Positions 27,336 through 64,000 are shown, counted from the stretch's first letter. The stretch: DNA of 64,000 bases from Bacillota bacterium (GCA_022790955.1 JAAVYD010000143.1:4635-68634); one strand, 5' to 3'. Translations and numbers: made by a program. Notes: generated from the sequence alone by a model not told the origin.

Positions 27336-27339
27336 GAGA

Positions 27340-28685: not shown

Positions 28686-28762
28686 GCGTCAGACAAAAAT
28701 ATAGTAACTTTTAAGATATAAATATAAAATGATGTTTTGAAGGAAAGGAGGAATGTGCAAAG

Positions 28763-29023: not shown

Positions 29024-29046
29024 GAAACAGCAGGAAGTCAGAATGG

Positions 29047-31150: not shown

Positions 31151-31218
31151 GAAATTGCAGGGCGGAGAACATCTCCGTCCTGCCTGTCGATTGAATTTGT
31201 GAAGGAGGTGAATCAGGA

Positions 31219-32058: not shown

Positions 32059-32073
32059 AGGTAGGTAAAACAG

Positions 32074-34831: not shown

Positions 34832-34924
34832 TACAAAGAACTTAATTTGATGTGGAAGACGGGAACAGGGCATATCTGCAGAATAACAGGTATGCCCTGT
34901 TTCTTTAAGTGAAAGGAAATTTTG

Positions 34925-35269: not shown

Positions 35270-35297
35270 TTGCTCAGCAAGGAAAAGAGGTGAGAGA

Positions 35298-36998: not shown

Positions 36999-37089
36999 AA
37001 TATGTAGTTTTGGATTAGCAATATGTATTTAGGGACAGATTTACTATTATGATATGTTGACAGGAGAAAAATATCAGAAGCGGATGTAC

Positions 37090-39144: not shown

Positions 39145-39354
39145 AATATCCTCCGTAACATCATAATCAAGGCATTGGAAAACTTTTGTGCCAACGCATT
39201 TAATATTAACATACAAAAAGATTTAATAGAATTAAAAAATTGGTAACACTTCATTTAATACGGTAAAAGGTTTGTTTTATGCAGCAATAGGGTGTATAAA
39301 AATGTGGGAAATAATGGATGGACGGCTTGAGTAAACATAGTGAGGGATATAAGT

Positions 39355-40275: not shown

Positions 40276-40317
40276 TCTGTTTGACATCAAAATATCAATT
40301 CATATGGGAGGGATATT

Positions 40318-41013: not shown

Positions 41014-41045
41014 ACATTTATGAAAGCATAAAGGAGAGTAGAAAA

Positions 41046-45242: not shown

Positions 45243-45341
45243 GATATTTCGCTTTTTCTAGTGTATTATCCTGATTGTCTTTATGACTTCCAGTATAATA
45301 CTGGTTATCAGTCTGCGTTGTAGTAGAAAGGAGAAGAAAAA

Positions 45342-46817: not shown

Positions 46818-46857
46818 GGAGTTGTTATAGAGGGAGCGCTTTAGGGAGAAGTAAAGA

Positions 46858-48291: not shown

Positions 48292-48363
48292 TAATTGTAT
48301 GGGCGAGGAAGTGGCTCATTGAGGCTGGGGTGGATGTTTTACTGAAATGAGGAGACGAAAAAG

Positions 48364-50169
48364 ATGCGTACAAGAAAAGAGCTGAAAGTGCAGGCTAAGA
48401 AAGTATTGAAAAGACATTATTGGCTGTTTGTTGCAATCTGTCTGGTAGCGGCAATCTTCGGAGCAGAGTTTTCTGCACCGATTAATGTGGAAACAGGTGA
48501 AGAGGCTACAACGGCAGTATCCGAGAAAATGACAGTTGCTTTTGGAGAATTTATGCTGGGTATCGCCGGGGGAAATACTGCGGACAGACAGAAGGAGATT
48601 GAAGATACCGAAGAGAGATATGCCGAGGAATCAAAGGCAGTTCAAAAAGCAGTGTTAGGGCGGAGCAGAGGTGTTTTTGCTGCGGTTATGAATAAGGCAG
48701 CATCAGGGGCATTTATGATGTCATTAGCTGTAGGTATTCATTCTCTGGTAGGTTCTGACAGTCTGACAGTTGCGATATTGCTTTTGGGAGCACTTATTTT
48801 AGTGCTGTTTGTTCAGGTTTTTATAATCAGTGTATACCGTGTAGTGATAAGAAGAATGTTTTTGGAAAGCAGAACTTATGAAAATGTGCCGATTCAAAGA
48901 GCATGGTTTTTACTGCGGATTAAGAAATGGCTCCATGCCGGCGTGGTTCTTCTGGCAGCCAGTGTGATGAATCTGCTCTGGGGGCTTACGATTGTGGGAA
49001 TGTTTGTAAAGTATTATTCTTATTTTCTGGTTCCGTATATTGTGGCGGAAAATCCGAATATCAAAGCAATGGAGGCAGTTACCTTATCCAGAAAACTGAT
49101 GAAAGGGCATAAGTGGCAGTGCTTTATTCTGGAAATGACATTTATCGGCTGGGATCTTTTGGGAATATTTACACTTGGTATCTCTAATGTCTTATGGACA
49201 AATCCATATAAGTCAGCGGTGATGGCCGAGTATTATGCGGAGTTACGAAGGCTTGGAAAAGAAAAGAAGATTGAAAACACGGAACTTCTGTCCGATGAGT
49301 ATTTATTTGAAAAGGCGGATATTTATGAGCTTGAGCAAGTTTATGCAGATGTAGAAGCGGAATATGCAAAAGCAGATACAGAGCTTTTGCAGCTTAAAGG
49401 GATACATAGAATTTTGGCAAATGTATTTGGCGTGACAATAAAACAGAATAAAGAGATGGAGCGTCTGGAAGAAGAGCAGAGCCGGAAATTCCTGCTGACT
49501 TATGATAAAGCTGCATTGGAGGGAAAGACATATCCAACCAGGCTTTATCCGATTCCGGAGCACAGGAAACGCGCATGGGTTATGAATCTTAATTATTTGA
49601 GATATTATTCTGTCTGGTCAGTGATTATGCTGTTTTTTGTGATGTCATTTGTTGGATGGATATGGGAAGTGAGCCTTCATCTGGTAACAGACGGAGTGTT
49701 TGTAAACCGGGGGGTTATGCATGGCCCGTGGCTGCCAATCTATGGGTATGGAAGTGTGATGATCCTGTTGTTATTAAACAAATTCCGCAGAAAACCCGCG
49801 GCGGAGTTCGTATTAGCGGTTGTGCTGTGCGGCTGTGTAGAATATTTTACTTCGTATTACCTTGAAATTGCACATAATGGCACAAAGTGGTGGGATTATA
49901 CCGGATATTTCCTGAATCTGAATGGAAGAATCTGTGCGGAGGGTCTGCTTACTTTTGGTGTCGGCGGTATGGCGATTGTATATATGCTGGCTCCGTTTTT
50001 GGACAGCCTGTTCCGAAAAATACCGGTGAAGGCGTTGATGATATCGGGATTAGTCCTGATCGGTATCTTTGCGGCAGATCAGGTGTATTCTTCTGAACAC
50101 CCGAACGAAGGAAAAGGAATCACAGATTATGCGGCGGTTTCTTCACCGATGGAGGTGGCAGGGAGATGA
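48364..50169 (+). CDS. Large polytopic membrane protein (DUF975-like N-half fused to a PF06541-like C-half, tentative)
   Basis: 601 aa with more than 10 TM helices and a central coiled/charged linker. Confidence 0.5.
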   Translation: MRTRKELKVQAKKVLKRHYWLFVAICLVAAIFGAEFSAPINVETGEEATTAVSEKMTVAFGEFMLGIAGGNTADRQKEIEDTEERYAEESKAVQKAVLGRSRGVFAAVMNKAASGAFMMSLAVGIHSLVGSDSLTVAILLLGALILVLFVQVFIISVYRVVIRRMFLESRTYENVPIQRAWFLLRIKKWLHAGVVLLAASVMNLLWGLTIVGMFVKYYSYFLVPYIVAENPNIKAMEAVTLSRKLMKGHKWQCFILEMTFIGWDLLGIFTLGISNVLWTNPYKSAVMAEYYAELRRLGKEKKIENTELLSDEYLFEKADIYELEQVYADVEAEYAKADTELLQLKGIHRILANVFGVTIKQNKEMERLEEEQSRKFLLTYDKAALEGKTYPTRLYPIPEHRKRAWVMNLNYLRYYSVWSVIMLFFVMSFVGWIWEVSLHLVTDGVFVNRGVMHGPWLPIYGYGSVMILLLLNKFRRKPAAEFVLAVVLCGCVEYFTSYYLEIAHNGTKWWDYTGYFLNLNGRICAEGLLTFGVGGMAIVYMLAPFLDSLFRKIPVKALMISGLVLIGIFAADQVYSSEHPNEGKGITDYAAVSSPMEVAGR

Positions 50170-51356
50170 TAGCACTTTATTTATCGCCGCTTTACATCTG
50201 TGTATGCGGATATCTTTTCTGGCATTTTGTAAAATGGTCAGGAGCAGGTCACAGTTGTTTTGAAAAAAAGAGTGTGCGGGTGATACTTGCAATTGTGTAT
50301 CTGGGTGTGATTTTCAGTATACTGATTGCATTTTTGATGGAGCCTTCTTCACTTCAGAGAAAGATACAGCTTTTTGCCAATTACTGGTTGGGTGTTCTTT
50401 TGTACGCGGTTCTTGTTGTGGCGGCTGCAGATATCATACGTTTGATTTTAAAGAAAACGAACCTTAAAGTAAAAGATAAATTATTTTCCAGGACAGGACA
50501 TCTGGCAGTGGGAACAATCTGTTTGGTTTTGACAGCAGTGTTCAGTATTACAGGGATCTTAAGTGCACGGACGATAAAAATGACGGATTATCAGATTGAA
50601 GTCGATAAAAAAGCAGGGAATCTGGAGTCTATTAAGGTGATTCTGATTGCCGATCTTCATCTGGGGTACAGTATCGGAAACTGGCATATGGAACAGATGG
50701 TACATAAAATCAATAAAGAAGCTGCGGACCTTGTAGTGATCGCAGGAGATATTTTTGATAATGAATATGCGGCGCTTGAGCATCCCGGGCAGATAGCAGA
50801 AACACTAAGTCATATTAAAAGTAAGTATGGAGTATATGCCTGTTATGGCAACCATGATATTGAAGAGAAGATATTGGCAGGATTTACATTTTCCAGTGAT
50901 AAAAAGAAGGTCAGTGATCCACGGATGGATGAATTTCTTGAGAAAGCAGAAATTAAGCTTTTGAGAGATGAGGGCGTGCTGATCGACGATGCTTTTTACC
51001 TGTATGGACGGCCGGATTATGAAAGGCCGGGAAGAGGAATTGAGACAAGAAAGACGCCCGGCCAGATCACAAAGGATATGGATCTGACAAAACCTGTTCT
51101 GGTGCTCGATCATGAACCGCGGGAATTGGAGGAACTGTCAAATGCAGGAGTAGACGTTGACTTGTGCGGACACACTCATGACGGACAGACGTTTCCGGGC
51201 AACCTTACGATTCATCTGTTTTGGGAGAATCCTCGCGGATATCTGAAAAAAGGAGATATGCATAATATTGTTACTTCGGGAATCGGAGTGTTTGGTCCGA
51301 ATATGCGGGTGGGAACCAGGAGTGAAATCTGCCGGATTAGCGTCGAATTCCTGTAA
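50166..51356 (+). CDS. Membrane-bound metallophosphoesterase (YkuE-like)
   Basis: Four N-terminal TM helices. Motifs DLHLG, GDIFD, GNHD and GHTHDGQ. The start overlaps the previous stop. Confidence 0.85.
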   Translation: MIALYLSPLYICVCGYLFWHFVKWSGAGHSCFEKKSVRVILAIVYLGVIFSILIAFLMEPSSLQRKIQLFANYWLGVLLYAVLVVAAADIIRLILKKTNLKVKDKLFSRTGHLAVGTICLVLTAVFSITGILSARTIKMTDYQIEVDKKAGNLESIKVILIADLHLGYSIGNWHMEQMVHKINKEAADLVVIAGDIFDNEYAALEHPGQIAETLSHIKSKYGVYACYGNHDIEEKILAGFTFSSDKKKVSDPRMDEFLEKAEIKLLRDEGVLIDDAFYLYGRPDYERPGRGIETRKTPGQITKDMDLTKPVLVLDHEPRELEELSNAGVDVDLCGHTHDGQTFPGNLTIHLFWENPRGYLKKGDMHNIVTSGIGVFGPNMRVGTRSEICRISVEFL

Positions 51357-51397
51357 ATTTATGAAAGATACATATGAGAAAGAGAGGAAAGAGTTTT

Positions 51398-51637
51398 ATG
51401 GATAAGAATTTAGTAATAGCTATGTGGAGAGTATTTTATATAGTAGCGTTGCTGCTGGGAATATTAGGTGCGGCCTGCACGGTTTTGTCGCTTTATTTGG
51501 TCTTTAACGGAAATGAAGCATTTGAAGCATCACAGCTTATTCTTCCAGCCGTTTGCGCATGTTTTTCTATTGCAGGCTTTGTGGTTATGAAGCTTTATAA
51601 AAAGCGTATCGATGCTGCTAAGAAGAGAGGGGAATAG
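51398..51637 (+). CDS. Small two-TM membrane protein
   Basis: 79-aa ORF with an AGAGAGGAAAGAG RBS, upstream of the ABC transporter. Confidence 0.4.
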   Translation: MDKNLVIAMWRVFYIVALLLGILGAACTVLSLYLVFNGNEAFEASQLILPAVCACFSIAGFVVMKLYKKRIDAAKKRGE

Positions 51638-51642
51638 GTAGT

Positions 51643-52368
51643 ATGGATTATATTATCGAGACAAAGAATCTTACCAAAGATTATAAAGGCTTTCTGGCAA
51701 ATGATAATGTGAGTATCCAGATTCCAAAAGGGGCGGTACATGGACTGATCGGACGGAATGGAGCGGGAAAGACAACGCTAATGAAGATGATTCTGGGATT
51801 TTCCAACCGAACAGGCGGAACGATCATTATTAACGGAAAAGAAGATGAGGCATCACTTTGGGCAGAGCGCAGTAAGATTGGCTCTATTATCGAAACACCT
51901 GCTTTTTATGATGAGATGACCTGTTTTGCCAATTTGATGTATCATGCGAAGCTGATCGGTTACGGGGATAAAAGTCATGTGATGGAAATACTGCGCAGAG
52001 TAGGGCTGGAGCGTTTTAAAGGCCGTAAAGTAAAAGCGTTTTCGCTGGGAATGCGGCAGAAGCTGGGAATTGCCTGTGCGATTCTTGGAAAACCGGAGTT
52101 TTTGATGTTAGACGAGCCTACGAATGGTTTGGATCCTGTATCAATTGCAGAGATCCGCACTCTTTTATTAGATATCAATGAAAAGGACGGCGTGACAATT
52201 TTAATTTCCAGTCATATTTTAGGTGAGATGGAAAAACTGGCATCTTCGTTCTCCTTTATGTTGGATGGGAAATTAGTAGACAGTATTACAAAAGAAGAGT
52301 TGGAAGAAAAGAATCAGGATTTGGAGACTTATTTCCTGGAAATGGCAGGAGGGGTGAAAGATGAATAG
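51643..52368 (+). CDS. ABC transporter ATP-binding protein
   Basis: Walker A GRNGAGKTT, signature FSLGMRQK and Walker B FLMLDEP. Confidence 0.9.
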   Translation: MDYIIETKNLTKDYKGFLANDNVSIQIPKGAVHGLIGRNGAGKTTLMKMILGFSNRTGGTIIINGKEDEASLWAERSKIGSIIETPAFYDEMTCFANLMYHAKLIGYGDKSHVMEILRRVGLERFKGRKVKAFSLGMRQKLGIACAILGKPEFLMLDEPTNGLDPVSIAEIRTLLLDINEKDGVTILISSHILGEMEKLASSFSFMLDGKLVDSITKEELEEKNQDLETYFLEMAGGVKDE

Positions 52369-53077
52369 GATTTTCCGGGCAGAGATATATAAATTGAGGC
52401 ATATGCCAAGTTTTTGTTATGGTATATTAGCTGTAATACCGGCGGGGCTTTTGTGTGCTGTTATAGCAAGCATGGATCGTGAGATCACTATGGTAGAGCT
52501 GTTTTCAGGAATGGCATCATATGCAAGTTTTTTTGTGGTTGCGGATATAGTTCTTTATGTGACAAATGATTATGAAAAGGGAACCATTAAGGCAATTATA
52601 TCCAGTGGAGTCAGCAAGAGCAGGGTTTATTTTGGAAGGCTGTTAGTATCTATATTTATTGCAGAAATTGGTTTTCTGCTCACACTCGCAAGTGCTGCAT
52701 TATATGCGAAGATCGTAGCGCAGATTCCGGTTTCTGACTGGACGATGGCGCAATATATTTCCAGCACAGTAATACAGATGATTTTTATTGCACTGTATGC
52801 GACTGTTGGGTATTTTGTTTCTGTTGTTGTAAGAAAACAGTCACTGGCTATTATCATTGCGCTGGTGGTTATTCATGCAGAGCCGCTGCTGGTAAGTTAC
52901 CTTGGAAAAATGTTGAAGATGGATCTGGAAATCTTTGATATTTCCAATGTTAGCCAACAGATGGAGGCACTTGATATCACAGGAAATGTATTGCTGGGAA
53001 GTGGAATTTTTGTGTTGGTTACAGTATTCGTCTGTATTGTGATCGGAGTTCAGGTGTTTAAGAGATATGACATTTAA
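52361..53077 (+). CDS. ABC-2 type permease
   Basis: 238 aa with six TM helices. The start overlaps the ATPase stop. Confidence 0.65.
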   Translation: MNRIFRAEIYKLRHMPSFCYGILAVIPAGLLCAVIASMDREITMVELFSGMASYASFFVVADIVLYVTNDYEKGTIKAIISSGVSKSRVYFGRLLVSIFIAEIGFLLTLASAALYAKIVAQIPVSDWTMAQYISSTVIQMIFIALYATVGYFVSVVVRKQSLAIIIALVVIHAEPLLVSYLGKMLKMDLEIFDISNVSQQMEALDITGNVLLGSGIFVLVTVFVCIVIGVQVFKRYDI

Positions 53078-53089
53078 ATAGGCGGCATT

Positions 53090-53533
53090 TGAATAGATCC
53101 CGTCTATGTGCAAGCAGACCTTGATGTGTATGATTTTTTCAAGAGTCAAGGGACGATCATTGTCAATGACACCGCCGACTTTACGGGTATGAACGGCTGC
53201 TATCTGTATCAAGGGCGGGGACGTGAAGCCGGACAAGGCGCAAAAGCTCAAATGCTGGTGCTTGCGTCCCATGAGGGCATTGTTTGTTCTCTCTGATGTG
53301 TGGCTGATCTGCCGCAAGAGGCTGATGAACAACATGAAAATCCAGTCCGTCCGGAAAGCCACCCACACATGGCTGATGGGGAAAATCAAATGCGGGAACT
53401 GAGGATATGCCCTTATGAGTACTTTCAATCCCTCTGGCAAGCAATACCTCCGCTGTACGAAACGACTGGATACAAGAGTTGTCCGGGGTGTGGGAAAATC
53501 ACCACGAGAGAGCTGGAAGCGGTGGTGTATTAG
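53090..53533 (+). pseudogene. GC-rich coding remnants of unknown origin
   Basis: Two short, natural-looking reading frames in different phases. One reads IDPVYVQADLDVYDFFKSQGTIIVNDTADFTGMNG...LVLASHEGIV. The other reads ...YKSCPGCGKITTRELEAVVY. No RBS or full-length ORF is present, and the composition differs from the flanks. Confidence 0.4.
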
Positions 53534-53741
53534 CAGATGGTCAAGAAGCGGGCAAGCTACAAAACGCTGACGGGTATATCAGCGCTTGTCAGACTGTTAC
53601 CCTGTGTAGTCTCTTGTAAACTGTACTTTTTCAAAATAAAAATAATTAATTTCATATAGAGCGTTTGGTGGTGCCGTGATTCTACATAGGATTGCGGCAC
53701 TTTTCTTTTTGACATATTCCGACCGAGCTATACGGGATTAC

Positions 53742-53775
53742 GTAATGCAGATAAAAGCGAGAGGTCCACCGTACT
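53742..53775. repeat. Left copy of imperfect direct repeat
   Basis: GTAATGCAG-ATAAAAGCGA-gaggtc-CACCGTACT. Confidence 0.7.
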
Positions 53776-53816
53776 CTGATTTGATTTCAAAGAATTCAGA
53801 TCGGAGGTAAAGAAAG

Positions 53817-54248
53817 GTGGCTTTTAATAAAGCAAGAGAAGAACAAAAATGGAAATTGTGGAAGGAACGTGAAGAGCAGATTATGCGTAGCGAAGGGATG
53901 AGCGAGGACGCGATCCAGAGCCTGTATCAAATGGACTGGGATGACTTTAATGAAGAACGGAGGTATCAGGAACACCTCTCATCTAATCAGGAGGAATTAT
54001 ATGCTGGAAGGGAGACAGAATATTTTCCGGAAGTTAAGGATATCCAGCAATTGTTTGACAGTATAGAAAATGAGCAGCTTTTACATATACTTTTGGAGTT
54101 GGATAAAAAAACACTGCAGATTTTGCTGCTTAAAATGTGGGGGTTTTCAGTGAGTGAAATATCCGCTCAGTTGGGTATTCCAGAGAAGACAATCTATACC
54201 CGGATTGACCGGTTGAAGAAAAAAATAAAAAAAGTTATGGAGAAGTGA
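53817..54248 (+). CDS. Sigma-70 region-4-type HTH protein (mobile-element regulator)
   Basis: 143 aa. C-terminal LQILLLKMWGFSVSEISAQLGIPEKTIYTRIDRLKKKI. GGAGG RBS before the GTG start. Confidence 0.7.
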   Translation: MAFNKAREEQKWKLWKEREEQIMRSEGMSEDAIQSLYQMDWDDFNEERRYQEHLSSNQEELYAGRETEYFPEVKDIQQLFDSIENEQLLHILLELDKKTLQILLLKMWGFSVSEISAQLGIPEKTIYTRIDRLKKKIKKVMEK

Positions 54249-54767
54249 AGAAAAAAGGGGGTGTTTGTCGGCTATATATATGAGAAGGGTAATTACCCGG
54301 AGTGTTCCTTGACAATTACATACCAGCATTACAGGTACGTTCTCGTAGATAGAAGCGTGACAGTATAAGCGCCATGACGGATGAAAGCAGCACTGTAGGA
54401 TGTCTGTATTCATTTTGAGCGATTCCTTATAGCTGTGAATAAGATTTTAGCAGGTCTTTCGCCATGAGCATCTGCGGGGGATAATGATACGAATATCTGC
54501 CATAGAGCAGAGGATGGACTCCAAGTTGTAATCAGCAAGACTTTCAGGAAATCTGCGAGCGGTGCGAAGCGAAGCATCCGCCTGTGATGTTCCCTAAACG
54601 TTAAAGAATGTTGGGTATCGGGGGTGGCGGGGACAAATACGATGCCAGAAAATTAAAATAAAAGAAATCGATGAAGAGTGTGTCGTTGATATCAGATACG
54701 TGCGGCTGTGGGGAGGCCTACAGCCGTATTCATGTGGTATTAACGCCATGCGGAAAGAAGAAGTAAT

Positions 54768-56735
54768 ATGTTTTATAAAGTAGAATACCAGAAAAGAGTA
54801 CATCAGGAGATAGAGAAGATATTCAGAGTATTACTGCCGGAGCAAGGGCTGGCGGTGCGTGAAGAACAGATCCGGTTATGTCATGAAATGCTTAACACCC
54901 TGCTGGAAGGAAAGATTGCTCTTTGTGATGCGGGAGTAGGAATTGGTAAAACTTATGCGTATTTAGTTGCATGCATCATGATGAGGAAGTATTCTGCGCT
55001 CGCAGAAAGAGTTGTACCACTGAATTATTTCCCAATGGTGATATCTACCTCCAGCATTGCACTGCAGAAAGCGATTCTTTCAGAGTATATCCCATTTCTC
55101 TCAAAGGTGCTTGTAGAACATGGAATGATTCAAACACCACTTCGGGCAGTGGTAAGAAAAGGAAAAGAACACTTTGTATGTGATGTCAGGCTGGAACAGC
55201 GGCTGGAAGCAATACGCGATAAGAAGAAAAATGCAATACAAAAAGAAGCTCTTATATTATTACGCAAACATTACGATATGGATGAGGTACAGGGAATCAG
55301 TGGATTTGACCGCAGGCTGGTAAATGTGCCGAAGTTCTGTCCAAGAGAATGTCCGGAAAAGGATACTTGCCGTTATCAGAAGTATTTGAACGAGGCAAAA
55401 AGGAAAGATATCTTTATTCAGATTTGTAATCACAATTATCTGCTTGCAGACGCGTCGCACCGGAACAAAGATTACCGTCCGCTTCTGGTAGATTATCGGA
55501 TATTAATTGTGGACGAAGCGCATCAGCTTCCAGAAGCCGCAAGGCAGATGTATGGGAAAAGTTTATGTTTTGATAATATTCGGGAGATAGGATACTATTT
55601 GGAGCAAGAGCATCAGAATGCGGAAGCCAGAACAATGAAAAGTGTCATACGAAATATGCTGGATATTATTGCAGAAAATCACATGACCGGAAATGGACTT
55701 AGAGCACACTTCTGTATGTCAGAAGAATGCTCGTTATATTTATACGAGGGAATCCAAATGCTGGATAGGCTGATGGAAACATTAAAAGGGACAGTTCCCC
55801 AATGGATACTGAACAGGCTGAAAGAGGCAAGAAGCGTGTTGGAGTGTTTCTTTTGTCAGGATCGGAAATATGTTCTTTACTTAAAATTGGATCAGGAAAA
55901 ACTTCCAGTTTTGTGTGCCGCCAGTCGGGAAATCCCAAATCTTTTGCAGGATATGCTGTGGAACAGGGAAATATCTGCTATTTTGGCCAGCGGAACACTA
56001 AAGGACGGAAAAGGGTTTGAAAGAACCAGACAGATGGCAGGATTAAACAATAGGAAGAATGTGCAGGAATATGTGGCAGTTTCGCCCTTTTCTTATAAAA
56101 AGAACTGTTTGCTATATCTACCTAAAACATTGAGACGTTATAAAAGAGGGAGCAGGGAAGAAGCGGAGATGGTAGCAAAGCATATTCACTCTCTGGTTTG
56201 TTCTACCTATGGACATACATTGGTGTTGTTTACATCTTATGCTTTAATGGGAAGTGTGTATCAGATTTTGCGCGATCGTTCTCCTTTCCCGATGGTAGAG
56301 GTGTGGAGGCATTCACAAGAAGAAATTATGAAATTTAAGAAAATGGAAAATGCTGTATTGTTTGCAGCAGGCTCCTGCTGGGAGGGGGTAGATTTTCCGG
56401 GAGATATGGTATCTTCCCTAATTATTGTGAAACTGCCGTTTGCTGTTCCAGATCCAATCAGTGAGGCGGAAAAAGAAGAGTACGAGACATTGGAAAAGTA
56501 TATACAGGCGATTATCATACCGGATATGCAGAAGAAACTACGTCAGGGATTTGGAAGGGCAATCCGGACGGAAAAAGATACCTGTGTAGTGTCTATCCTG
56601 GATTACCGGGCAGTAAAGGGCGGCAAATATTATGAAGATGTTATGTGTGCTCTGCCAGCATGCCAGATGGCAGAGGATATGAAAGATGTACGGGAGTTTA
56701 TCCGGAGCAGAAAAAGTTTAGAATATTATTTATAA
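54768..56735 (+). CDS. dinG: DinG/XPD-like (Rad3-family) DNA helicase
   Basis: 655 aa. Walker A CDAGVGIGKTYAY and DEAH box IVDEAHQL. Cys cluster FCPRECPEKDTC between motifs I and II. C-terminal helicase motifs FAAGSCWEGVDFPG and QGFGRAIRT. Confidence 0.8.
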   Translation: MFYKVEYQKRVHQEIEKIFRVLLPEQGLAVREEQIRLCHEMLNTLLEGKIALCDAGVGIGKTYAYLVACIMMRKYSALAERVVPLNYFPMVISTSSIALQKAILSEYIPFLSKVLVEHGMIQTPLRAVVRKGKEHFVCDVRLEQRLEAIRDKKKNAIQKEALILLRKHYDMDEVQGISGFDRRLVNVPKFCPRECPEKDTCRYQKYLNEAKRKDIFIQICNHNYLLADASHRNKDYRPLLVDYRILIVDEAHQLPEAARQMYGKSLCFDNIREIGYYLEQEHQNAEARTMKSVIRNMLDIIAENHMTGNGLRAHFCMSEECSLYLYEGIQMLDRLMETLKGTVPQWILNRLKEARSVLECFFCQDRKYVLYLKLDQEKLPVLCAASREIPNLLQDMLWNREISAILASGTLKDGKGFERTRQMAGLNNRKNVQEYVAVSPFSYKKNCLLYLPKTLRRYKRGSREEAEMVAKHIHSLVCSTYGHTLVLFTSYALMGSVYQILRDRSPFPMVEVWRHSQEEIMKFKKMENAVLFAAGSCWEGVDFPGDMVSSLIIVKLPFAVPDPISEAEKEEYETLEKYIQAIIIPDMQKKLRQGFGRAIRTEKDTCVVSILDYRAVKGGKYYEDVMCALPACQMAEDMKDVREFIRSRKSLEYYL

Positions 56736-56903
56736 GGTTATTTCCGGTATTGTTGGATTTGCTCCATTTGAAACGAGTGCAGGTGGAAATGTTTGGTACA
56801 GTTTCAGCAAAGAAATCTTACGAATTGTTGGATTTGCTGAATAGATATCCCCACATAGATTGGGTATACTGTGTATAGCGTTAGAGGAAAGGCGGTGAGT
56901 GAA

Positions 56904-58019
56904 ATGGCACAATATATAGTTGTATTATACCGGGAGGTAAATCAAAAGTATTATTGTATCCGGGAGCGGTTAAGTGGCGATATTGTGCTTGAACCATCTC
57001 AATATCTAATGCATAAGACAAGGCAGAAACGGTCACCAAATACAATCAAGAGAAGTGCTTATGCGCTTTCATATTATCTAAATTATATGGCGATGGAAAA
57101 TCTAAAGCTGGATATGATATGGGAGATGAAGTATGAAGAACAGCATGAGCATTTTACCAATTTTTTACATTGGTTAAGAAATGGGATTCATAGCAATGAA
57201 AAGTACCAGAAGAAACCAAGTAATGAAACGTGTAATGCGTATCTCAAAGAAGTATTTCGATTTTATGAATTTTTAGAAAGAGGAGAACGCGTGGGAAATT
57301 TGAAGGTGCTGTCGGATGCACAATTTATTGTTCGGAACTCCATAGGTATCAAAAGAGTGTTGAAACGGAGAAGTTTTGAGGGATATTTAAAAGAACAGGG
57401 GCATCAAGGTAGAAGCATAGAGCAGGATAAGATCATTGTACTGTTGCAGGCATGTGCAAATTGTCGAGATCAGATTCTGCTTTTATTATTAGCCGAAACC
57501 GGGTTTCGTATAGGAGAGCTTTTGGGGGTGCGATATGAAAAAGATATTAACTTTAAAGAGCATATCATTTATGTGAATTTTCGAGAAGATAATGAGAATG
57601 AGGCTAGAGCAAAAAATGCGGAATTACGGAGAGCGAAAATCAGTAATGAAACCTTTGCAATTTTAAGATTCTATATGGAAGAATACAAAGACTTGATTTT
57701 TACACAGGAATTTCTTTTTATCAATCTGTCAGATGATTATAAAGGGAAGCCAATGAGATATGGAACGGTGTATGCGATGCTGGAACGTTTGGAGCATAAG
57801 ACAGGGATTAAGGCAACACCTCATATGCTACGACATTATTTTTCTAATGAAAGAAAAAAAGATGGCTGGCCGATAGAACTGATTAGCCGAGCGTTAGGGC
57901 ATAAAAATATCGAAACTACTATGAAGTATTTGAATATTTCGGATGATGAATTGATCGAAGTCAGTGACGTCTTTTATCAGAGACATCAATCCTTATATGG
58001 AATCGACCATCTGCTATAG
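56904..58019 (+). CDS. Tyrosine recombinase 1 (Tn554 TnpA-like size)
   Basis: Motifs ETGFRIGELLG, HMLRHYF and LGHKNIETTMKYL. Confidence 0.85.
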   Translation: MAQYIVVLYREVNQKYYCIRERLSGDIVLEPSQYLMHKTRQKRSPNTIKRSAYALSYYLNYMAMENLKLDMIWEMKYEEQHEHFTNFLHWLRNGIHSNEKYQKKPSNETCNAYLKEVFRFYEFLERGERVGNLKVLSDAQFIVRNSIGIKRVLKRRSFEGYLKEQGHQGRSIEQDKIIVLLQACANCRDQILLLLLAETGFRIGELLGVRYEKDINFKEHIIYVNFREDNENEARAKNAELRRAKISNETFAILRFYMEEYKDLIFTQEFLFINLSDDYKGKPMRYGTVYAMLERLEHKTGIKATPHMLRHYFSNERKKDGWPIELISRALGHKNIETTMKYLNISDDELIEVSDVFYQRHQSLYGIDHLL

Positions 58020-58036
58020 TACGAGGAGGCGGTAAA

Positions 58037-60031
58037 ATGTCTGCAATCAGAATACAAGAAGCTGAACATTTTGTGATTCAAGAACATTTAAATGAGCAGC
58101 TTATGGTAGATGGATTGCTACAGGAAACACAGATTGAATGTGCAAAAAGGTTTTTATTCCGGAAAAGGATATATGATGTGACACTTATCGAGGAGTCTGA
58201 CTTTCGGCAGTTTAAGAGAGAGTTACTAGATGGCGAGGGATACATACGCAGACAGGTGGTGGAAATGTCAGGGGCACTCCGTAGGGTTCAGAAATATTGG
58301 ATAGAAAAGGAATATGGGGAGCTATTACATGAAATAGAGCGTTGTACGGATGCAGAAACACAACTGTTTGGTAATATTAAGAGATTTTTGATACGTCAAG
58401 GAATTCATCATTTAAAAGAAGTGGACTATTTACTTCGAGAGAAATATGAACAAGAACTGGCAAAGACAAGAACGGATGAACAGTGTTTAAAGTATTTGAA
58501 AGCGTTCGATAGGGTGAAACAGTATGATATTCGGGAAAATATGAAAAAACTTACGGGAATGATACGGAATAAGCTAACGTATAACAATCAGATTATTTTC
58601 CTGCCATATCTTCCCGATCAGGAACTGGCGATGGAATTTGACAAAGTGCGTGATAAAAATGAATGGATATGGGATTTTAAAAGGTCAGCATCAGAAATTT
58701 TAAAACGTCAGGTATTTTCCATATTAATATATATTCTTGATAATATGAGGGGGGATCCAAAGGGACGTAGAGTCAGGTTTTTACTGCCATTACGATGGTT
58801 ATATGAATTTTGCGTAGAGGAAAGGATTGCAGATTTAGAACGGCTGGAATTATACCAAATAGAAATGTTGAAAGAGACTGTTGCTCAGAAAGTAGTCAAT
58901 TATAAAAATGCCATGCAGATTGTGGACAACTGCAGAAAGATATTATTTCTAAATTCCCAAGAGATACACTGGAACGCAAATGTGTGGTATATAGAGCGGT
59001 TTCAGTTATCGCCGGAAAGAATCAATCCCAGTAATCCAGTTATGAGAATCAGTTTTTATGAAGTTAGCAATAAAAATAGTAGGGCATTACTTCAAGAATA
59101 TGTAAGATATCAGATTGGAATTACAGGTTTAACCATTGGAAATATCCGAACTCAATTATATGATTTAAAAAAGTTTTTGGAATACTTCACAGAGAAATCC
59201 TCCATTTTTGATTTATCAGATGTAGAACTGGAGTCTTATTTTATAGAGCTTCAAGAAGAAGATATAAAAGCAGAGACTTATAATAAACAGATAATTAATA
59301 TTTGGAAGTTTTATCAGTATTTCCTGTCGAAAGAAAGAATAAAAGAAATTCCTTTTGAATTAGAGTATTATTTGCAGAAAACATATCCTGTGCATTATGA
59401 CAGGACTGTAGAAGAAGCAATATATATGGAGATTCTCAATAAGTTGCATTTGTTTCCAGAGGTATCAAGACTGATATTTTTGCACCTATGGTGTACAGGA
59501 TTACGAATCAGTGAAGTTTGCACCTTAAAAGGAGACGCATACTACTGGGATGGAGAAGATGCATGGATAAAAGTATATCAGATTAAGATGAAAGCGGATA
59601 AGTTAATACCGATACCATTGGTATTATATAGGATTATGGATATATATATTCAAAAAAATAAAATACAAGCGAAGAGTTATTTATTTAAAAGCACAAATGG
59701 TGGAGCATACCGAGTAGGAAGTTTTTATAGAACATTTAAAGCCAATTGTGAAAGATATGAGATTGCTAACAGCGAGTATGTATTTAAAAGTCATGATTAT
59801 CGGCATACGCTGGCGACCAGATTTTATGATGATGGAGTATCTATACAGACGATACGAGATTATTTAGGACATGTTACCGAGGATATGACCAAGCAGTATA
59901 TAGACTATCTGCCAAAGAAAATTACTAAAGCAAATGAAGAATACTTTAACAAACCGGGAAATAATCTGGCGGCAGGAATTACAGTAAAGAAGCGTGGTGA
60001 GAAGGATGACGGAAAGAATCCACATATATGA
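58037..60031 (+). CDS. Tyrosine recombinase 2 (Tn554 TnpB-like size)
   Basis: 664 aa with motifs CTGLRISEVC, HDYRHTLA and LGHVTEDMTKQYI. Confidence 0.85.
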   Translation: MSAIRIQEAEHFVIQEHLNEQLMVDGLLQETQIECAKRFLFRKRIYDVTLIEESDFRQFKRELLDGEGYIRRQVVEMSGALRRVQKYWIEKEYGELLHEIERCTDAETQLFGNIKRFLIRQGIHHLKEVDYLLREKYEQELAKTRTDEQCLKYLKAFDRVKQYDIRENMKKLTGMIRNKLTYNNQIIFLPYLPDQELAMEFDKVRDKNEWIWDFKRSASEILKRQVFSILIYILDNMRGDPKGRRVRFLLPLRWLYEFCVEERIADLERLELYQIEMLKETVAQKVVNYKNAMQIVDNCRKILFLNSQEIHWNANVWYIERFQLSPERINPSNPVMRISFYEVSNKNSRALLQEYVRYQIGITGLTIGNIRTQLYDLKKFLEYFTEKSSIFDLSDVELESYFIELQEEDIKAETYNKQIINIWKFYQYFLSKERIKEIPFELEYYLQKTYPVHYDRTVEEAIYMEILNKLHLFPEVSRLIFLHLWCTGLRISEVCTLKGDAYYWDGEDAWIKVYQIKMKADKLIPIPLVLYRIMDIYIQKNKIQAKSYLFKSTNGGAYRVGSFYRTFKANCERYEIANSEYVFKSHDYRHTLATRFYDDGVSIQTIRDYLGHVTEDMTKQYIDYLPKKITKANEEYFNKPGNNLAAGITVKKRGEKDDGKNPHI

Positions 60032-61499
60032 GTTAGAATGTTATAAGCTGGCAACTGAAGAAAAGCGTGCAAAGATGAATAGCAGTGAAAAAAGGTATTT
60101 TAATTTGGAAGGCTTACCATCAGAACAGATTCGGGAGATATTAGAAGAATTTGTATGGGAACGGGGAAGGATATTAGCACCGTCTAGCATGGTATCTGAA
60201 TTGATTTACTACAATAATATCCGAAATTTTCTCATAGAAAAGAATATCAAAGAACTCCATTATGTTAACAGGGAAAAGATTATCTTGTTATTAAAAGGCT
60301 GGATGTTAGAACGAGGATATGCGCTTACAAGTAAAAAATATCGTCCGGCATATGATACAATGGTTGACGAAACATCTGGTATAGAGAAGTATATGAAAAA
60401 GCTTCTGCGTTTTATAAAACCGGAGGATTATCAAGAAGAGCAAGAAAAGGATATATGGGAATTAAAAAAAATTGGGTTTCAGATAAAAGATAGTCCGATT
60501 AGAAATGTAGAAACAATTAATTTTACACATATATTACAAGAGGATATAAGGACAGAGGTAAAGAGAGCTGTTTATCTACAACTCAAATACGTAGCGTTAG
60601 GAACTGTTTTGTCGGAGATGACGGCGACCAACCGCTTTACCAAGTATCTGGCAAAGAAATATCCGAAAATTTTATCGCTCCAAGATTTAGAACGAGAACA
60701 TATAGAAAATTACCTCGTTTATTTACAGACGGAGGATAAAGGGAGAAAAAATTATCGTTCAGATCTTTATGCTTTGCGAAGAGTTATTCAAAAGGTTGGA
60801 AAGATATATGAGCGGGAACATATGGAGAGTTTGTTTATCAATACAGATTTTCCAAGTACACCGAGATATGCATTCAGCTTTCGTACAGATGCGGAGATTA
60901 AGCGATTAAATGCTTTTATTTTTAACATGGATGAGCAGATTTCCAGATGCCTTATAATACACCAATTGTTAGGAACTCGAATATCGGAAACATTAACATT
61001 AAAAACAGATTGTGTATCCTTTAAAGAAGAGCGGTATTTTGTAAGAATTGATACGATAAAATCAACAACTTATGACAAACCAGTCAGTGAAGAACTAGCA
61101 ACGTTGATATTTGCAGCTATTGAATATACGAGAGAACGCTATGGTGAAACAAAATATATATTTGTACATGCGAAAGATTCAACAAAACCATATCAGTATT
61201 CCATGATTCAAAACAGGATTATGGTAATGATCCGACAAAAGGATATCCGGGACGATCATGGAGAACTCTTAAAGTTTGGAACACATATTTACCGCCATAG
61301 CTATGGAAAAAAATTGACAGAAATGCATGTGGAAGATTGGATGATAGCTAGGTTGCTTGGGCATAAGACGCTAAGAACAGTACATCACTATCGTAGGATT
61401 GGAAACAAAATGATGGCAGATGAGACAAGAAAGTCCAGAGAAAAAATGGACATGATTCTTCTACAAGTCATAGAAGGGTGGGAAGGATATGAACTATGA
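60006..61499 (+). CDS. Tyrosine recombinase 3
   Basis: Motifs LGTRISETL, HIYRHSYG and LGHKTLRTVHHYR. Overlaps the end of recombinase 2. Confidence 0.85.
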   Translation: MTERIHIYELECYKLATEEKRAKMNSSEKRYFNLEGLPSEQIREILEEFVWERGRILAPSSMVSELIYYNNIRNFLIEKNIKELHYVNREKIILLLKGWMLERGYALTSKKYRPAYDTMVDETSGIEKYMKKLLRFIKPEDYQEEQEKDIWELKKIGFQIKDSPIRNVETINFTHILQEDIRTEVKRAVYLQLKYVALGTVLSEMTATNRFTKYLAKKYPKILSLQDLEREHIENYLVYLQTEDKGRKNYRSDLYALRRVIQKVGKIYEREHMESLFINTDFPSTPRYAFSFRTDAEIKRLNAFIFNMDEQISRCLIIHQLLGTRISETLTLKTDCVSFKEERYFVRIDTIKSTTYDKPVSEELATLIFAAIEYTRERYGETKYIFVHAKDSTKPYQYSMIQNRIMVMIRQKDIRDDHGELLKFGTHIYRHSYGKKLTEMHVEDWMIARLLGHKTLRTVHHYRRIGNKMMADETRKSREKMDMILLQVIEGWEGYEL

Positions 61500-61911
61500 T
61501 AAAATGATAGCCTTAAATAAAGCGGAGAGCGAACAGAAAGTAAAATTGGCTCAACAGGCTATAGACACATTAGTGGAAAGAAAGGAGTATCCTTCGGTAA
61601 CGGAGCTAGTGAAGATGACGGGGTTATCCAGAGGGTTCTTCTATAAAAATAAAATAGTAAGAGAATGGCTGGATAATTCCATACAAAGACAAAGCGGAAT
61701 TTTGCAGCATATTTGGAAACGAAAAGCGGAATTTGGAGAAGCGGAAATTCTTGATTTGCGAATGGAAATTTCGAAACAAAGGTCAGATAATGAAAAGCTG
61801 AGAGAGGAAAATCAAAAGTTAGGAGAACAGGTGGATAAGTTACAGCAGACAATAGATAATCTCCAGAAGCGGTTACGAAAGAAAGAAATCACATTTTTGA
61901 AGAAGCTGTGA
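61489..61911 (+). CDS. TnpC-like small HTH/coiled-coil protein
   Basis: 140 aa. Overlaps the recombinase 3 stop. N-terminal VTELVKMTGLSRGFFYKN HTH-like segment and a C-terminal heptad region. Confidence 0.65.
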   Translation: MNYDKMIALNKAESEQKVKLAQQAIDTLVERKEYPSVTELVKMTGLSRGFFYKNKIVREWLDNSIQRQSGILQHIWKRKAEFGEAEILDLRMEISKQRSDNEKLREENQKLGEQVDKLQQTIDNLQKRLRKKEITFLKKL

Positions 61912-61952
61912 TTATATCACAGGGATCGTTGAAAAAAATTATTGGCTTAAAA

Positions 61953-62033
61953 ATGGAAGTGTTACATTTGAAACTTGAGATTGAAGATTTAGCAGAAGAA
62001 AATCAGAGGTTGAAAAGTGAATATGAAATATGA
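61953..62033 (+). pseudogene. Coiled-coil fragment resembling the C-terminus of a TnpC-like gene
   Basis: 26-aa ORF MEVLHLKLEIEDLAEENQRLKSEYEI. It overlaps the start of the next TnpC-like gene. Confidence 0.35.
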
Positions 62034-62388
62034 CAAAATAGTTTCTATTAGTCAGGCAAAAAGTAGAGAAAAGGTCAAGATTGCAAAACGAGAAATCCAA
62101 AATATGTTGGAGAGGAAAGAAAAGATAACTGTGGCGGCGTTGGTAAGAAATACAGGTTTTTCTAAAGCACTTTTTTATGATAATGATGAGGTGAGAATGT
62201 ATTTGGATGACGCGTTTCGCAAACAAGGCGCTTGTTATAATCCAAAGCAGGTTATTATAGATAGAGTTATGGAGAAGAAGCTTGAGATGTTAAAAACAAG
62301 TAATATAAAATTGAAAAAAGAAAATGAAAAGTTGAGGTATGAGAATTTTAAACTTAGGGAAGAAAATGCTTGGTTAAGAGAGAAATAA
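62023..62388 (+). CDS. Second TnpC-like small HTH/coiled-coil protein (paralogue of 61489-61911)
   Basis: Collinear similarity to the first copy: YDKIVSISQAKSREKVKIAKREIQ..LVRNTGFSKALFYDN vs YDKMIALNKAESEQKVKLAQQAID..LVKMTGLSRGFFYKN. Confidence 0.65.
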   Translation: MKYDKIVSISQAKSREKVKIAKREIQNMLERKEKITVAALVRNTGFSKALFYDNDEVRMYLDDAFRKQGACYNPKQVIIDRVMEKKLEMLKTSNIKLKKENEKLRYENFKLREENAWLREK

Positions 62389-62417
62389 ATTAAGCAAAAA
62401 TAAATATTGAAAATAAT

Positions 62418-62457
62418 GTAATGCGGTGGTTTAAATCTAAAAGCGAATCACCGTACT
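62418..62457. repeat. Right copy of imperfect direct repeat
   Basis: GTAATGCGG-(10 nt)-CTAAAAGCGA-at-CACCGTACT. The three blocks match the left copy at 8/9, 9/10 and 9/9, in the same order. Confidence 0.7.
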
Positions 62458-62692
62458 ATTTTATATTAATAATAGGAAAATGACAAGCCTACCAGTCGAG
62501 AGGTGCGGTGAAAGTTCCCCTGTTTATAAGGGATTCCAGGTGGGTACTAAATTTATGATGGATTTGTCTAATGATTTATGGTACAATGAATGCTCAACCG
62601 TGAAGACCCATTATGAATCTGGTTAAATTTACATAAAATTATAGATGATCTTTTCTGAAAATGGGAAAGCATAGTTTGAAAGGAGTATTTGT

Positions 62693-63157
62693 ATGAAATA
62701 CGTATGTATGCTTATATCGGTAGCTGACATTAACGCCGCAAGGAAATTTTATGAGGATTTGTTTGGATTAGAGGTGTTTCAGAATTACGGAAGAAACATA
62801 GCCTTTACCTGCGGTTTGGCATTGCAACAGGATTTTGATTGGCTTTTGAATCTGCCGAAAGAAAAGATATTAAAGAAATCCAACAATGAGGAAATTGTTT
62901 TTGAGGAACAGGACTTTGATGGGTTTCTGAACAAGTTGAAAGAATACCCGGATATTGAATATCTAGGAGAAGTGATCGAACATAGCTGGGGCCAGCGTGT
63001 GATTCGGTTTTACGATTTGGACGGACATATCATTGAAGTTGGAGAAGATATGAAAATGGTGATAAAGCGTTTTCTTGCTTCTGGTATGACGATAGAAGAA
63101 GTTTCTGTGAAAATGGATGCTTCCGTGGAGGACTTAACGAAACTTCTGAATAGTTAA
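62693..63157 (+). CDS. VOC/glyoxalase-bleomycin-resistance family protein
   Basis: 154 aa with an AAAGGAG RBS. N-terminal VADINAARKFYEDLFGLEV and C-terminal FYDLDGHIIEV patterns. Confidence 0.7.
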   Translation: MKYVCMLISVADINAARKFYEDLFGLEVFQNYGRNIAFTCGLALQQDFDWLLNLPKEKILKKSNNEEIVFEEQDFDGFLNKLKEYPDIEYLGEVIEHSWGQRVIRFYDLDGHIIEVGEDMKMVIKRFLASGMTIEEVSVKMDASVEDLTKLLNS

Positions 63158-63202
63158 TATACGGTGGACGAGGAAACGAATCGTAATGGGGGTGGGTGGA
63201 AA

Positions 63203-63577
63203 ATGAAACGAGAATTAGGAATCGCAAGGTGTGGACTTGCTTGCTGCCTGTGTTCGGAAAATGTAAAATGCAATGGATGTTCTTCGGATAACTGTCCAGG
63301 CTACATCCAATGTGAAAACAGAAAATGTTCCATCGAAAAGGGGCTCTCAGGCTGCTATGCTTGTAAAATGGATTGCAAAAGAGGTTTGCTGAGTAAAATC
63401 AAGCCATATGGTTTTACATCGTTTATAAAAAGATATGGGATGCAGAAGCTTCTTAACTACCTCGAGGAAAACGAAAAGAAAGGAATCGTATATCACCGTG
63501 AAGGAATCATTGGCGATTATGATGATTTTGATGATGTGGAAAGGCTGATAGAATTTGTTATGAATGGAAAACGTTAA
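63203..63577 (+). CDS. DUF3795-like Cys-rich protein
   Basis: CGLACCLCSENVKCNGCSSDNCPG...C..C pattern near the N-terminus. Confidence 0.55.
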   Translation: MKRELGIARCGLACCLCSENVKCNGCSSDNCPGYIQCENRKCSIEKGLSGCYACKMDCKRGLLSKIKPYGFTSFIKRYGMQKLLNYLEENEKKGIVYHREGIIGDYDDFDDVERLIEFVMNGKR

Positions 63578-63623
63578 TCTCCATCTTGTCGGGACTTTGA
63601 ATAAATTTGAGGAGAATGATTTA

Positions 63624-64000
63624 ATGAAGGCATTTAGTCGAGAAGCAAAACAGATCATGATTGAGCGTTTCGGGAAAGATACAATTATAGCATTGGCAAC
63701 AGCAGAAAATGTAACTCCTTATGTGCGATATGTAAATGCCTATTATGAAAATGGAGCTTTTTACATCATTACCCATGCACTCTCAAATAAAATAAAACAT
63801 ATAAAAGATAACTCCGTTGTTGCAATCGCTGGAGAGTGGTTTACAGCGCATGGAAAAGGGGTTAGCTTGGGTTATTTCGGGAAAAAAGAGAATTGTGTGA
63901 TTGCTGAAAAGCTGAAAAAAGTCTTTGTAGAATGGATCAATAACGGGCACACGGATTTTGATGATGAAAACACCATCATTCTGCGTGTAGAATTAACAGA
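63624..64000 (+). CDS. Pyridoxamine 5-prime-phosphate oxidase-like (split-barrel) protein, 3-prime partial
   Basis: GAGGAG RBS. The ORF MKAFSREAKQIMIERFGKDTIIALATAENVTPYVRYVNAYYENGAFYIITH... runs off the window end and is not in the supplied ORF track. Confidence 0.55.
   Translation, partial: MKAFSREAKQIMIERFGKDTIIALATAENVTPYVRYVNAYYENGAFYIITHALSNKIKHIKDNSVVAIAGEWFTAHGKGVSLGYFGKKENCVIAEKLKKVFVEWINNGHTDFDDENTIILRVELT

Follow-up and report, generated by a model that had tools for sequence, protein, structure and literature searches.

Three tyrosine recombinases and two DUF6262 proteins in tandem

The DNA analysed here, hereafter the window, is a stretch of 64,000 nucleotides from a Bacillota bacterium (GCA_022790955.1, JAAVYD010000143.1:4635-68634), of which positions 1..64000 correspond to C101:4635-68634 in our designation of the contig. 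From the listing of open reading frames (ORFs) and the Pfam and NCBIfam scans used for determination of the gene content, a compact block of genes, all on the + strand, was recognized in its right part, consisting of a sigma region-4 gene (sig4), a gap containing a structured element, a gene for a DinG-type helicase, three genes for tyrosine recombinases (the trio) and two genes for DUF6262 proteins. This end module, together with the larger element to which it belongs, is the subject of this report. A previous interpretation made from the sequence alone (the sequence-only reading) had taken the block as an autonomous transposon of 8.7 kb, ending at position 62457.

Recombinase 1 (56871-58019, Phage_integrase), which is TnpA-like, is composed of 382 amino acids (aa) when read from its GTG codon, and relatives put the start 11 codons inward, likely at 56904, giving 371 aa. 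Recombinase 2 (58037-60031, Phage_integrase; 664 aa) is an extra large paralog, carrying a 285-aa N-terminal extension without match to the Tn554-family proteins compared, and recombinase 3 (59994-61499, Phage_integrase; 501 aa) is TnpB-like. The tandem arrangement with overlapping or near-overlapping boundaries is as described in the sequence-only reading, and so is the presence of R/HxxR/H..Y motifs in all three. After alignment to the XerA sequence 4a8e, the catalytic residues were read as R213, H318, R321, H344 and Y353 in recombinase 1 (invariant in 13/13 homologs), R490, H586, R589, H612 and Y621 in recombinase 2, and R329, H431, R434, H457 and Y466 in recombinase 3 (the latter two sets invariant in 19/19 sequences, comprising 15 family members and 4 Tn554-family TnpB proteins). 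As judged from these residues, all three recombinases are catalytically complete. The TnpC-like coiled-coil gene that had been noticed to overlap the last stop codon of the trio was found to encode a DUF6262 protein (61489-61911; PF19776, E 2.5e-31, together with coiled-coil family matches), TnpC/GinD-like and carrying a helix-turn-helix (HTH) and a C-terminal coiled coil. It is followed by a second DUF6262 gene (62017-62388; PF19776, E 8.5e-37), which had not been singled out before; the two paralogous proteins share 37% identity (blastp, E 1e-22).

By blastp, recombinase 1 is 29% identical to Tn554-family TnpA (E 3e-42), recombinase 3 is 23-25% identical to TnpB (E 2e-26, aa 60-485), and recombinase 2 is 24-25% identical to TnpB (E 3e-26, aa 286-644); the identity between recombinases 2 and 3 is only 21% (E 2e-7). 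A maximum-likelihood tree of 39 rows was constructed with 8 trios, 4 Tn554-like pairs and 7 integrases of the window's genome, leaving out the Rit, Pseudomonas Gin and SE proteins. Recombinase 1 was placed as the sister of the TnpA clade (support 95/94), recombinase 3 inside the TnpB clade (98/98), and recombinase 2 as the sister of the clade formed by TnpB and recombinase 3 (95/91). TnpC of Tn554 is annotated under DUF6262, and the Tn554-type modules on plasmids are annotated as a tyrosine recombinase (361 aa), a site-specific integrase (630 aa) and a 'DUF6262 family protein'. The proposed relationship to Tn554 was indeed borne out, and of the phylogenetic placement suggested against both Tn554 and Rit proteins, the tree provides the part against TnpA and TnpB. 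Among plasmids, all the matches of recombinases 2 and 3 belonged to two-recombinase Tn554-like modules, no trio being found in the regions opened (H1, H4, H6, H14, H26 and H30); megablast of the 9.1-kb region and tblastn of DUF6262 protein 1 gave no plasmid match.

A profile of recombinase 1 detected 268 related stretches in a collection of species-representative genomes, and the counts were made on the best 80. Recombinases 2 and 3 and DUF6262 were present in 63 of the 66 loci with at least 5.4 kb of downstream sequence. The number of DUF6262 copies in these 66 loci was one in 39, two in 18, three in 5 and four in 1, with none detected in 3. Near-identical copies were found in mouse-gut runs from 11 studies. 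In one locus (L012), the complete recombinase 1 is preceded by an additional partial copy. Between Roseburia inulinivorans DSM 16841 (locus L134) and Erysipelatoclostridium sp. AM42-17 (L135), the three recombinases show no difference in their aligned parts, and such an identical trio in Lachnospiraceae and Coprobacillaceae points to very recent transfer between classes.

Split pilin gene, element ends and conjugation genes

In order to locate the boundaries, the window's own genome was searched with the Flp1_like profile, and two pieces of a flp1-like pilin gene of the Tad type were located on contig C101, a 5' piece at C101:87-140 (profile positions 2-19) and a 3' piece at C101:69619-69711 (profile positions 18-48). 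The whole integrated conjugative element, as delimited by the split gene and by conserved ends, covers C101:142-69619 on the + strand, or about 69.5 kb; the insertion makes up nearly the whole contig, and the window lies entirely within it, with both element ends outside. In four of the five other genomes checked, all four from Lachnospiraceae, the two flp pieces were found on the same strand at distances of 60.2, 74.7, 79.2 and 81.7 kb, the fifth being interrupted by a contig end. In Blautia producta DSM 2950, the element lies between chromosome positions 478,234 and 559,974.

The ends themselves are conserved. The left end of the element starts here with GGAATATTCACCCCCTATTATGGGG, and wherever both flp pieces were located (five genomes), the 5' codons run straight into a conserved start, GGAATATTNACC(C/A)CCTA; the likeness extends as ...WTATGGGGTGGGTATAAGGTGTAT (about 40 nt) in four of the five, and stops after about 19 nt in the DinG-less genome G044. 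The right end finishes here with CCAG-N4-GGTACTAAATTTT, the form common to the five genomes being ...CCAG-N4-GGG(G/T)(C/A)CTAAWTTT(T). A 5-bp repeat is present at both junctions in four of the five genomes, its sequence depending on the host (TGGTT here; TGGTG, TGGTG and TGGTC elsewhere), and the exception is the Blautia producta copy, with TAGTG at one junction and TCGTT at the other. With respect to the interrupted gene, the flp 5' fragment reads on into the left end to form a chimeric 59-aa ORF (C101:27-206, before the window), and in several relatives the right end provides AGGGGG-N8-9-ATG in frame with the flp 3' part; from this arrangement, the leaderless pilin fragment might still be translated.

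A comparison of boundaries in 40 related loci showed that the conserved DNA passes position 62457 by about 100 nt, up to the common right-end motif. In relatives this motif adjoins the 3' part of a small Flp1_like gene (Pfam; profile positions 18-48 of 49), followed by the Tad-locus genes for DUF5702 and A24 prepilin peptidase. Within the window, an att-like internal copy of the right-end sequence is located at 62449..62561 (+ strand), containing the motif of the relatives' right ends and showing 81% identity to the true right end, which lies about 0.9 kb beyond the window (C101:69512-69617); only the latter copy precedes the flp 3' part. The DNA after the internal copy bears no resemblance to the left end, and no internal copy of the left end was found on the element. 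The segment between the two right-end copies, about 2.4 kb in length, carries a glyoxalase-like gene (62693-63157), two Cys-rich DUF3795-like genes (Pfam) and a PNPOx-like gene; this terminal cargo begins at 62562, continues to the window's end at 64000 on the + strand, and runs about 1 kb beyond it to the true right end. The depth of the 2.4-kb segment in mouse-gut metagenome runs is 5-15x that of its surroundings, and look-alikes are therefore present in other contexts.

Further evidence came from an independent 36-kb contig of run X5, near-identical over 18.5 kb, a range that starts at window position ~46500, takes in the 2.4-kb terminal segment and ends at the right junction. The run had been flagged as a possible source of the searched stretch, and the 26 differences argue that the contig is not this assembly. 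The differences are clustered at positions 18488-18536 of locus L048, most of the listed ones beginning two bases beyond the flp junction, a pattern indicating the same element inserted at the same site beside a diverged flp gene.

These junctions bear directly on the proposal of the sequence-only reading, that is, an autonomous Tn554/RIT-like transposon of 8.7 kb bounded by 9-bp repeats, in which DinG and its regulator form a minimal defence or replication cargo. The 9-mer CACCGTACT is indeed present at 53767 and 62449, against an expectation of 0.09 per 9-mer, and the trio is Tn554-related as that proposal requires. The repeat was, however, picked post hoc and is missing from the second right-end copy, the conserved sequence continues past 62457 to the common motif, and the X5 contig runs unchanged through both proposed ends. 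The relatives' homology and the split flp gene as well as this contig place the ends elsewhere, and we regard an 8.7-kb transposon, being contradicted by the junction data, as extremely improbable. The search for the same unit in other genomes, recommended with that proposal, did recover related loci, but neither the proposed ends nor an empty target site was found. The view that sig4, the gap and DinG are the sole cargo was not confirmed either, and what had been taken as a unit of 8.7 kb forms the right-end part of a conjugative element of about 69.5 kb.

The conjugation genes are all on the + strand of the window. A NikA/MobC-like gene (23893-24258; Pfam PF21983, E 6.6e-12) is followed by a relaxase gene of the MobA/VirD2-like type (24265..25557; PF03432, E 6.3e-38), a gene for type IV coupling protein (29047..30804; PF02534, E 4.1e-67), and genes for a PrgI-family protein and a VirB4/TraG-type ATPase (32074..34831; PF12666, E 1.6e-30, and PF19044, E 2.3e-11); within 24265-34831, a PF01935 match was also counted for the ATPase. 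Relaxase, coupling protein and VirB4-type ATPase are thus encoded on one integrated segment, which has its own recombinases and defined ends in a split target gene. The gene for coupling protein lies within the flp-split interval in 5/5 genomes. In one of them, Blautia producta DSM 2950 (G041), the match to coupling protein is in two pieces, C1:519189-520109 and 522677-522898, with about 2.5 kb between them, suggestive of an insertion; this genome holds another trio element, near 2.93 Mb, in which the corresponding gene is split likewise. On contig C101, the trio gives the only Phage_integrase matches, and no large serine recombinase was found.

Taking these gene identities and homologies, the split target, the conserved ends and the conjugation genes together with the covariation and co-occurrence described below, all of which are observed, we consider it very probable that the trio and the DUF6262 genes constitute the integration/excision module of an integrative and conjugative element (ICE) of about 69.5 kb, site-specific for a flp1-like (Tad) pilin gene, and that the module belongs to the Tn554/GInt superfamily.

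Several observations weigh against this conclusion. The match of the flp 5' fragment is weak by itself (E 0.012), and gains weight because the two pieces are complementary (...GMSVIELLLILV then VVMIALILIFKNQ...) and because the split pattern recurs elsewhere. Two right-end copies, separated by 2.4 kb, are present in this genome, which simple integration does not explain; the duplication may be a relic of tandem insertion. The contigs from 4 runs contained neither a circular junction or other excision product nor an empty site, and no joint between the internal right-end copy and flp, a result uninformative either way since contigs drop rare forms, and no close relative without the element was found, a DNA search of 40 relatives for the flanks or an empty site giving short matches at chance level only. 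Both DinG and the structured RNA are missing from 13 of the 60 loci with at least 3.3 kb of upstream sequence, indicating that the trio needs neither. The module is located at the right end and reads outward, whereas the operons of Tn554 and GInt are located at the left (5') end and read into the cargo, as described in PMC5385486. Furthermore, pairs of elements share only about 9.3-10.2 kb at 90-99% identity, with different DNA leftward, and a self-contained unit of 10 kb would look alike; the shared blocks read here as mosaicism.

The last observation is the main support for a different arrangement, in which the flp site is occupied by two elements in tandem, an ICE and, unrelated to it, a non-conjugative island of the GInt type, about 9-12 kb in length (from sig4 to the right end) and either self-moving or mobilised in cis. 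In agreement with such an island, the left breakpoints of the shared blocks vary, the block of sig4, RNA and DinG has nearest relatives different from those of the trio (see below), the published GInts are without conjugation genes, and accretion-like events do occur, as the duplicated right end of this genome shows. An island of this kind would, however, leave the ICE without its own integrase, and neither an internal left-end copy nor an att-like site was found upstream of sig4; the flp 5' piece and the conserved left end are located 60-82 kb away in 5/5 genomes. Moreover, the variation of the left breakpoints from one partner locus to another is better explained by recombination than by a fixed end. 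We therefore judge the island very unlikely and retain the trio as the integration module of the ICE itself.

The sig4-dinG block and the remaining cargo

The sig4 gene (53817-54248, + strand) encodes an HTH protein of 143 aa consisting of sigma-70 region 4 only (Sigma70_r4_2, E 1.1e-8), a putative activator of the end module. Just before it, a terminator-like hairpin (53670..53701, + strand), recognized by a consensus scan as a pattern match only, closes the upstream cargo unit. The helicase gene (54768-56735, + strand) encodes a DinG/XPD-family Fe-S helicase of superfamily 2, 655 aa in length and without exonuclease domain (Pfam Helicase_C_2, E 3.8e-31). The protein carries a Walker A motif (GIGKT58), DEAH249 and QGFGR593, and four cysteines at 138, 191, 195 and 201, located between the Walker A and DEAH motifs with the spacing expected for the Fe-S cluster in helicases of the DinG/XPD type. 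Among solved structures, the best matches are DinG and XPD (PDB DinG 8zef, E 2.3e-28), and the gene is the only Helicase_C_2 gene found in this 88%-complete genome. Both the helicase with its Cys cluster and the sigma region-4 protein were thus correctly recognized in the sequence-only reading.

A role in defence had also been suggested for the helicase, and the PADLOC model typeIV_DinG (PDLC01439) indeed matches nearly its full length (E 2.2e-91), which also speaks for the defence cargo of the proposed 8.7-kb transposon. The likeness to CasDinG (Csf4) of type IV CRISPR systems lies in this match and in the presence of a DinG-family helicase on a mobile element. The differences are that neither csf/cas genes nor CRISPR arrays were found nearby, and that the protein stays below the cut-offs of all the curated NCBIfam equivalogs, with 113 bits against 400 for Csf4, 293.6 against 680 for YoaA, and 265.8 against 789 for DinG; the lack of cas genes and the low Csf4 score stand against the defence role and against the transposon carrying it.

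DinG lies directly upstream of the trio in 47 of the 60 informative loci, and is accordingly a conserved partner rather than the incidental cargo it had been taken for. A separate search starting from DinG gave 16 loci, with the trio downstream in 14/14 of those with enough sequence and sig4 upstream in 16/16; conservation of DinG at loci without the recombinases, which would have spoken against a mobile unit, was not encountered in this set. DinG is obligately tied to the trio, and the trio is not tied to DinG. In DinG-less loci, a Sigma70_r4 gene was found 1.5-2.5 kb upstream of the trio in 3/3 examined, and sig4 is the more general partner because it is kept in both kinds of locus. The nearest relatives of DinG (L078/L079) are 80-81% identical, while the trios paired with them are only 44-51% identical, indicating mosaicism between the two blocks. 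In Dorea amylophila (L089, 7001-8419), DinG is left only up to residue 401, directly adjoining the 70 C-terminal residues of recombinase 1, a deletion having removed the gene junction.

The 519-nt gap between sig4 and dinG had been described as a non-coding stretch of 520 nt. This is correct in that no conserved ORFs, small ones included, were found in it, but the stretch is not featureless: a conserved structured element of about 540 nt (54222..54766, + strand; C101:58856-59400 as the nhmmer extent) was identified by covariation. In 11 diverse copies, the gap is conserved in blocks, and RNAalifold predicted 106 pairs in 16 helices, of which 44 showed compensatory changes. Paired cells amounted to 96.0%, against 36-47% when the partner was slid by 1-3 columns, and the 44 covarying pairs compare with 9-15 in the slid controls, the observed values being reached by 0/500 shuffles, though in all these tests the structure was derived from the same alignment. 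On the + strand, a number of G-U pairs are kept without change in 10-11 of the 11 sequences, which favours an RNA of the + strand. Using a sequence profile, the element was detected in every DinG-bearing locus of the first two locus sets and at a single position in the window's genome; for the third set, the counts were 43/47 among DinG loci and 0/13 among DinG-less loci. In two pairs of loci (L012/L100 and L033/L168), the gap is enlarged to 1.3-1.7 kb and the structured element is in separate pieces, as if interrupted.

From this pattern, the structured element reads as a large RNA in the dinG leader. No match at the gathering level of Rfam 15 was obtained for the window or for 7 loci. A motif upstream of dinG in Firmicutes is known as 'dinG RNA' (RF03082). 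Of six intergenic regions, one (L007) matched this 87-position model with 18.7 bits, against a gathering score of 46.9, the match resting on a common AAUGAUAC box and two hairpins; the window's gap and 4 other gaps gave no match. The likeness is thus in the location 5' of dinG and, in this one relative, in the AAUGAUAC box followed by two hairpins, and the difference is in the length, 87 positions in the model against about 540 nt here, and in the subthreshold score. By these common features, the structured element is possibly a distant and extended relative of the RF03082 motif. The RNA was also considered as a guide for the att sites, and this candidate was rejected, as the gap and attL/attR, compared on both strands, had no common substring longer than those of shuffled controls in 4 genomes. 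A promoter scan was not above shuffles (11 found versus 8.9 expected).

As the main alternative to an RNA, the element may function as single-stranded DNA, for instance as a single-strand origin or promoter on the transferred strand, with DinG as its replication helicase. Its location on an ICE, its large and strand-specific structure, and its strict link to a DNA helicase (as counted above for DinG and DinG-less loci) would all agree with such a function, and no terminator or feature sequestering the ribosome-binding site, as is typical of a cis-regulatory leader, was seen. On the other hand, the nearly invariant G-U pairs suit RNA better, DinG-less sister ICEs would need such an origin and yet are without the element, and one relative does match, if faintly, the Rfam dinG RNA. 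We hold the single-stranded DNA element to be possible, though unlikely, and continue to describe the structure as an RNA.

The remaining window genes include those for DUF3801, ArdC-N, a lysozyme-CHAP hydrolase, an actin-like partition protein, methylases and sortase-dependent adhesins. A pair of genes at 13398-18495, within the conjugative element, codes for an adhesin of 1437 aa, containing a thioester domain and seven SpaA repeats, and then for a sortase. A group of signalling genes is located at 37090-41013, coding on the minus strand for a LytTR response regulator with a GHKL kinase, and also for PilZ and receiver-GGDEF proteins, adjoined by the gene for a collagen-binding/SpaA adhesin of 1439 aa (40923-45242); a second GGDEF protein (GGDEF-dCache) is encoded at 46858-48291.

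Proposed mechanism and comparison with known systems

The excision activity, the regulation, and the roles of the helicase and the RNA we infer as follows. By analogy with GInts and Tn554, the three recombinases and the DUF6262 proteins would act jointly on the asymmetric ends, recombining them across a 5-6-bp core (TGGTT here) within the flp codons for '..LILV|VV..', and the excised circle would then be transferred by the relaxase and the type IV secretion genes of the element. The end operon would be switched on by sig4, an arrangement resembling that of the sigma-like Orf7 beside xis/int in Tn916. The set of sig4, the structured RNA of ~540 nt and the Fe-S DinG forms a conserved yet dispensable front of the operon; as a best guess, the RNA may be a cis-acting leader or a partner of the helicase, and DinG, a 5'-3' Fe-S helicase by family, may help to process or replicate the excised or transferred DNA. 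In a bolder form, the RNA, the Fe-S DinG and the heteromeric triple recombinase would make up a previously unrecognised machine, in which a new class of large RNA controls or drives ICE excision together with the helicase, possibly in a replicative, copy-out-like manner. We think this distinctly unlikely; if true, it would represent the first conjugative branch of the GInt/SE/Tn554 superfamily with an RNA component.

In the literature searched, no paper was found that describes an ICE with such a recombinase module. GInts, SEs and Tn554-like elements are described as non-conjugative, and in bioRxiv 10.1101/2024.06.12.598671, GInts are stated to be without conjugative determinants, their transfer route and spread being unknown. 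The present finding makes the multi-recombinase module an integration system of large conjugative elements widespread in gut Lachnospiraceae, thereby supplying a transfer route for the superfamily, and identifies a Tad-system pilin gene as the attachment site. It also adds a large conserved structured RNA or DNA element that is not captured by Rfam 15. Support for the transfer itself is indirect, and comes from the near-identical element beside a diverged flp gene in the X5 contig and from the identical trio proteins in Roseburia and Erysipelatoclostridium.

Among the systems with more than two recombinases, RIT elements resemble the module in having three adjacent or overlapping, catalytically complete tyrosine recombinases. 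They differ, as described, in that the Rit proteins are 315-410 aa in length and that the elements carry terminal inverted repeats and no TnpC-like gene. The module here has recombinases of 371-382, 664 and 501 aa together with DUF6262 genes, and the element has asymmetric ends, a search for terminal inverted repeats having given nothing of note. SEs carry intA-tfp-intB-srap, according to PMC10214605, and share with the present module the organization into four genes, with an extra member between an ordinary and a large recombinase and then a TnpC-like protein, and a core or footprint of 6 bp. The difference, again by description, is that Tfp is without the RHRY residues and that SEs are gammaproteobacterial and non-conjugative.

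The likeness to Tn554 is in the TnpA-like, TnpB-like and TnpC-like proteins, encoded in the same order, and in the site- and orientation-specific insertion with asymmetric ends and a short core. Tn554 is, however, a small unit transposon of 6-10 kb, non-conjugative, with two recombinases only and genes at the left end that read inward, in contrast to the three recombinases on a 69.5-kb element described here, and the identity between the proteins is only 23-29%.

The combination of three recombinases with a TnpC-like protein, rightly noticed in the sequence-only reading, has an existing name that was missed therein, GInt, with the operon ginABCD. According to PMC5385486, GInts contain three consecutive tyrosine recombinase genes plus a small TnpC-like gene, GinC lacks the first catalytic Arg, and all four genes are reported to be essential. 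The element described here is like the GInts in carrying the trio and a TnpC-like fourth gene at one end of a site-specific island with short imperfect flanking repeats, and differs in that the third recombinase keeps the full catalytic set, that conjugation genes are present, and that the DUF6262 gene exists in 1-4 copies. In Table S3 of PMC5385486, two gin operons of Firmicutes are recorded as 'inserted in' a DNA helicase, either ATP-dependent or Rad3-related, and their size and att sites are entered as not determined. One of these, Roseburia inulinivorans ACFY01000093, is the locus L134 of our set, in which sig4, the structured element, DinG, the trio and DUF6262 are arranged in the same order and the first recombinase is 53% identical to recombinase 1 here. 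Homology to a published gin operon is thus established through this locus, the Pseudomonas GinA-D proteins lying outside the comparison, and its architecture indicates that the helicase belongs to the element and is not the target of insertion, correcting the published reading of the Firmicutes examples. The element of the window is a conjugative variant of the GInt/Tn554 kind, with a large structured element that had not been annotated.

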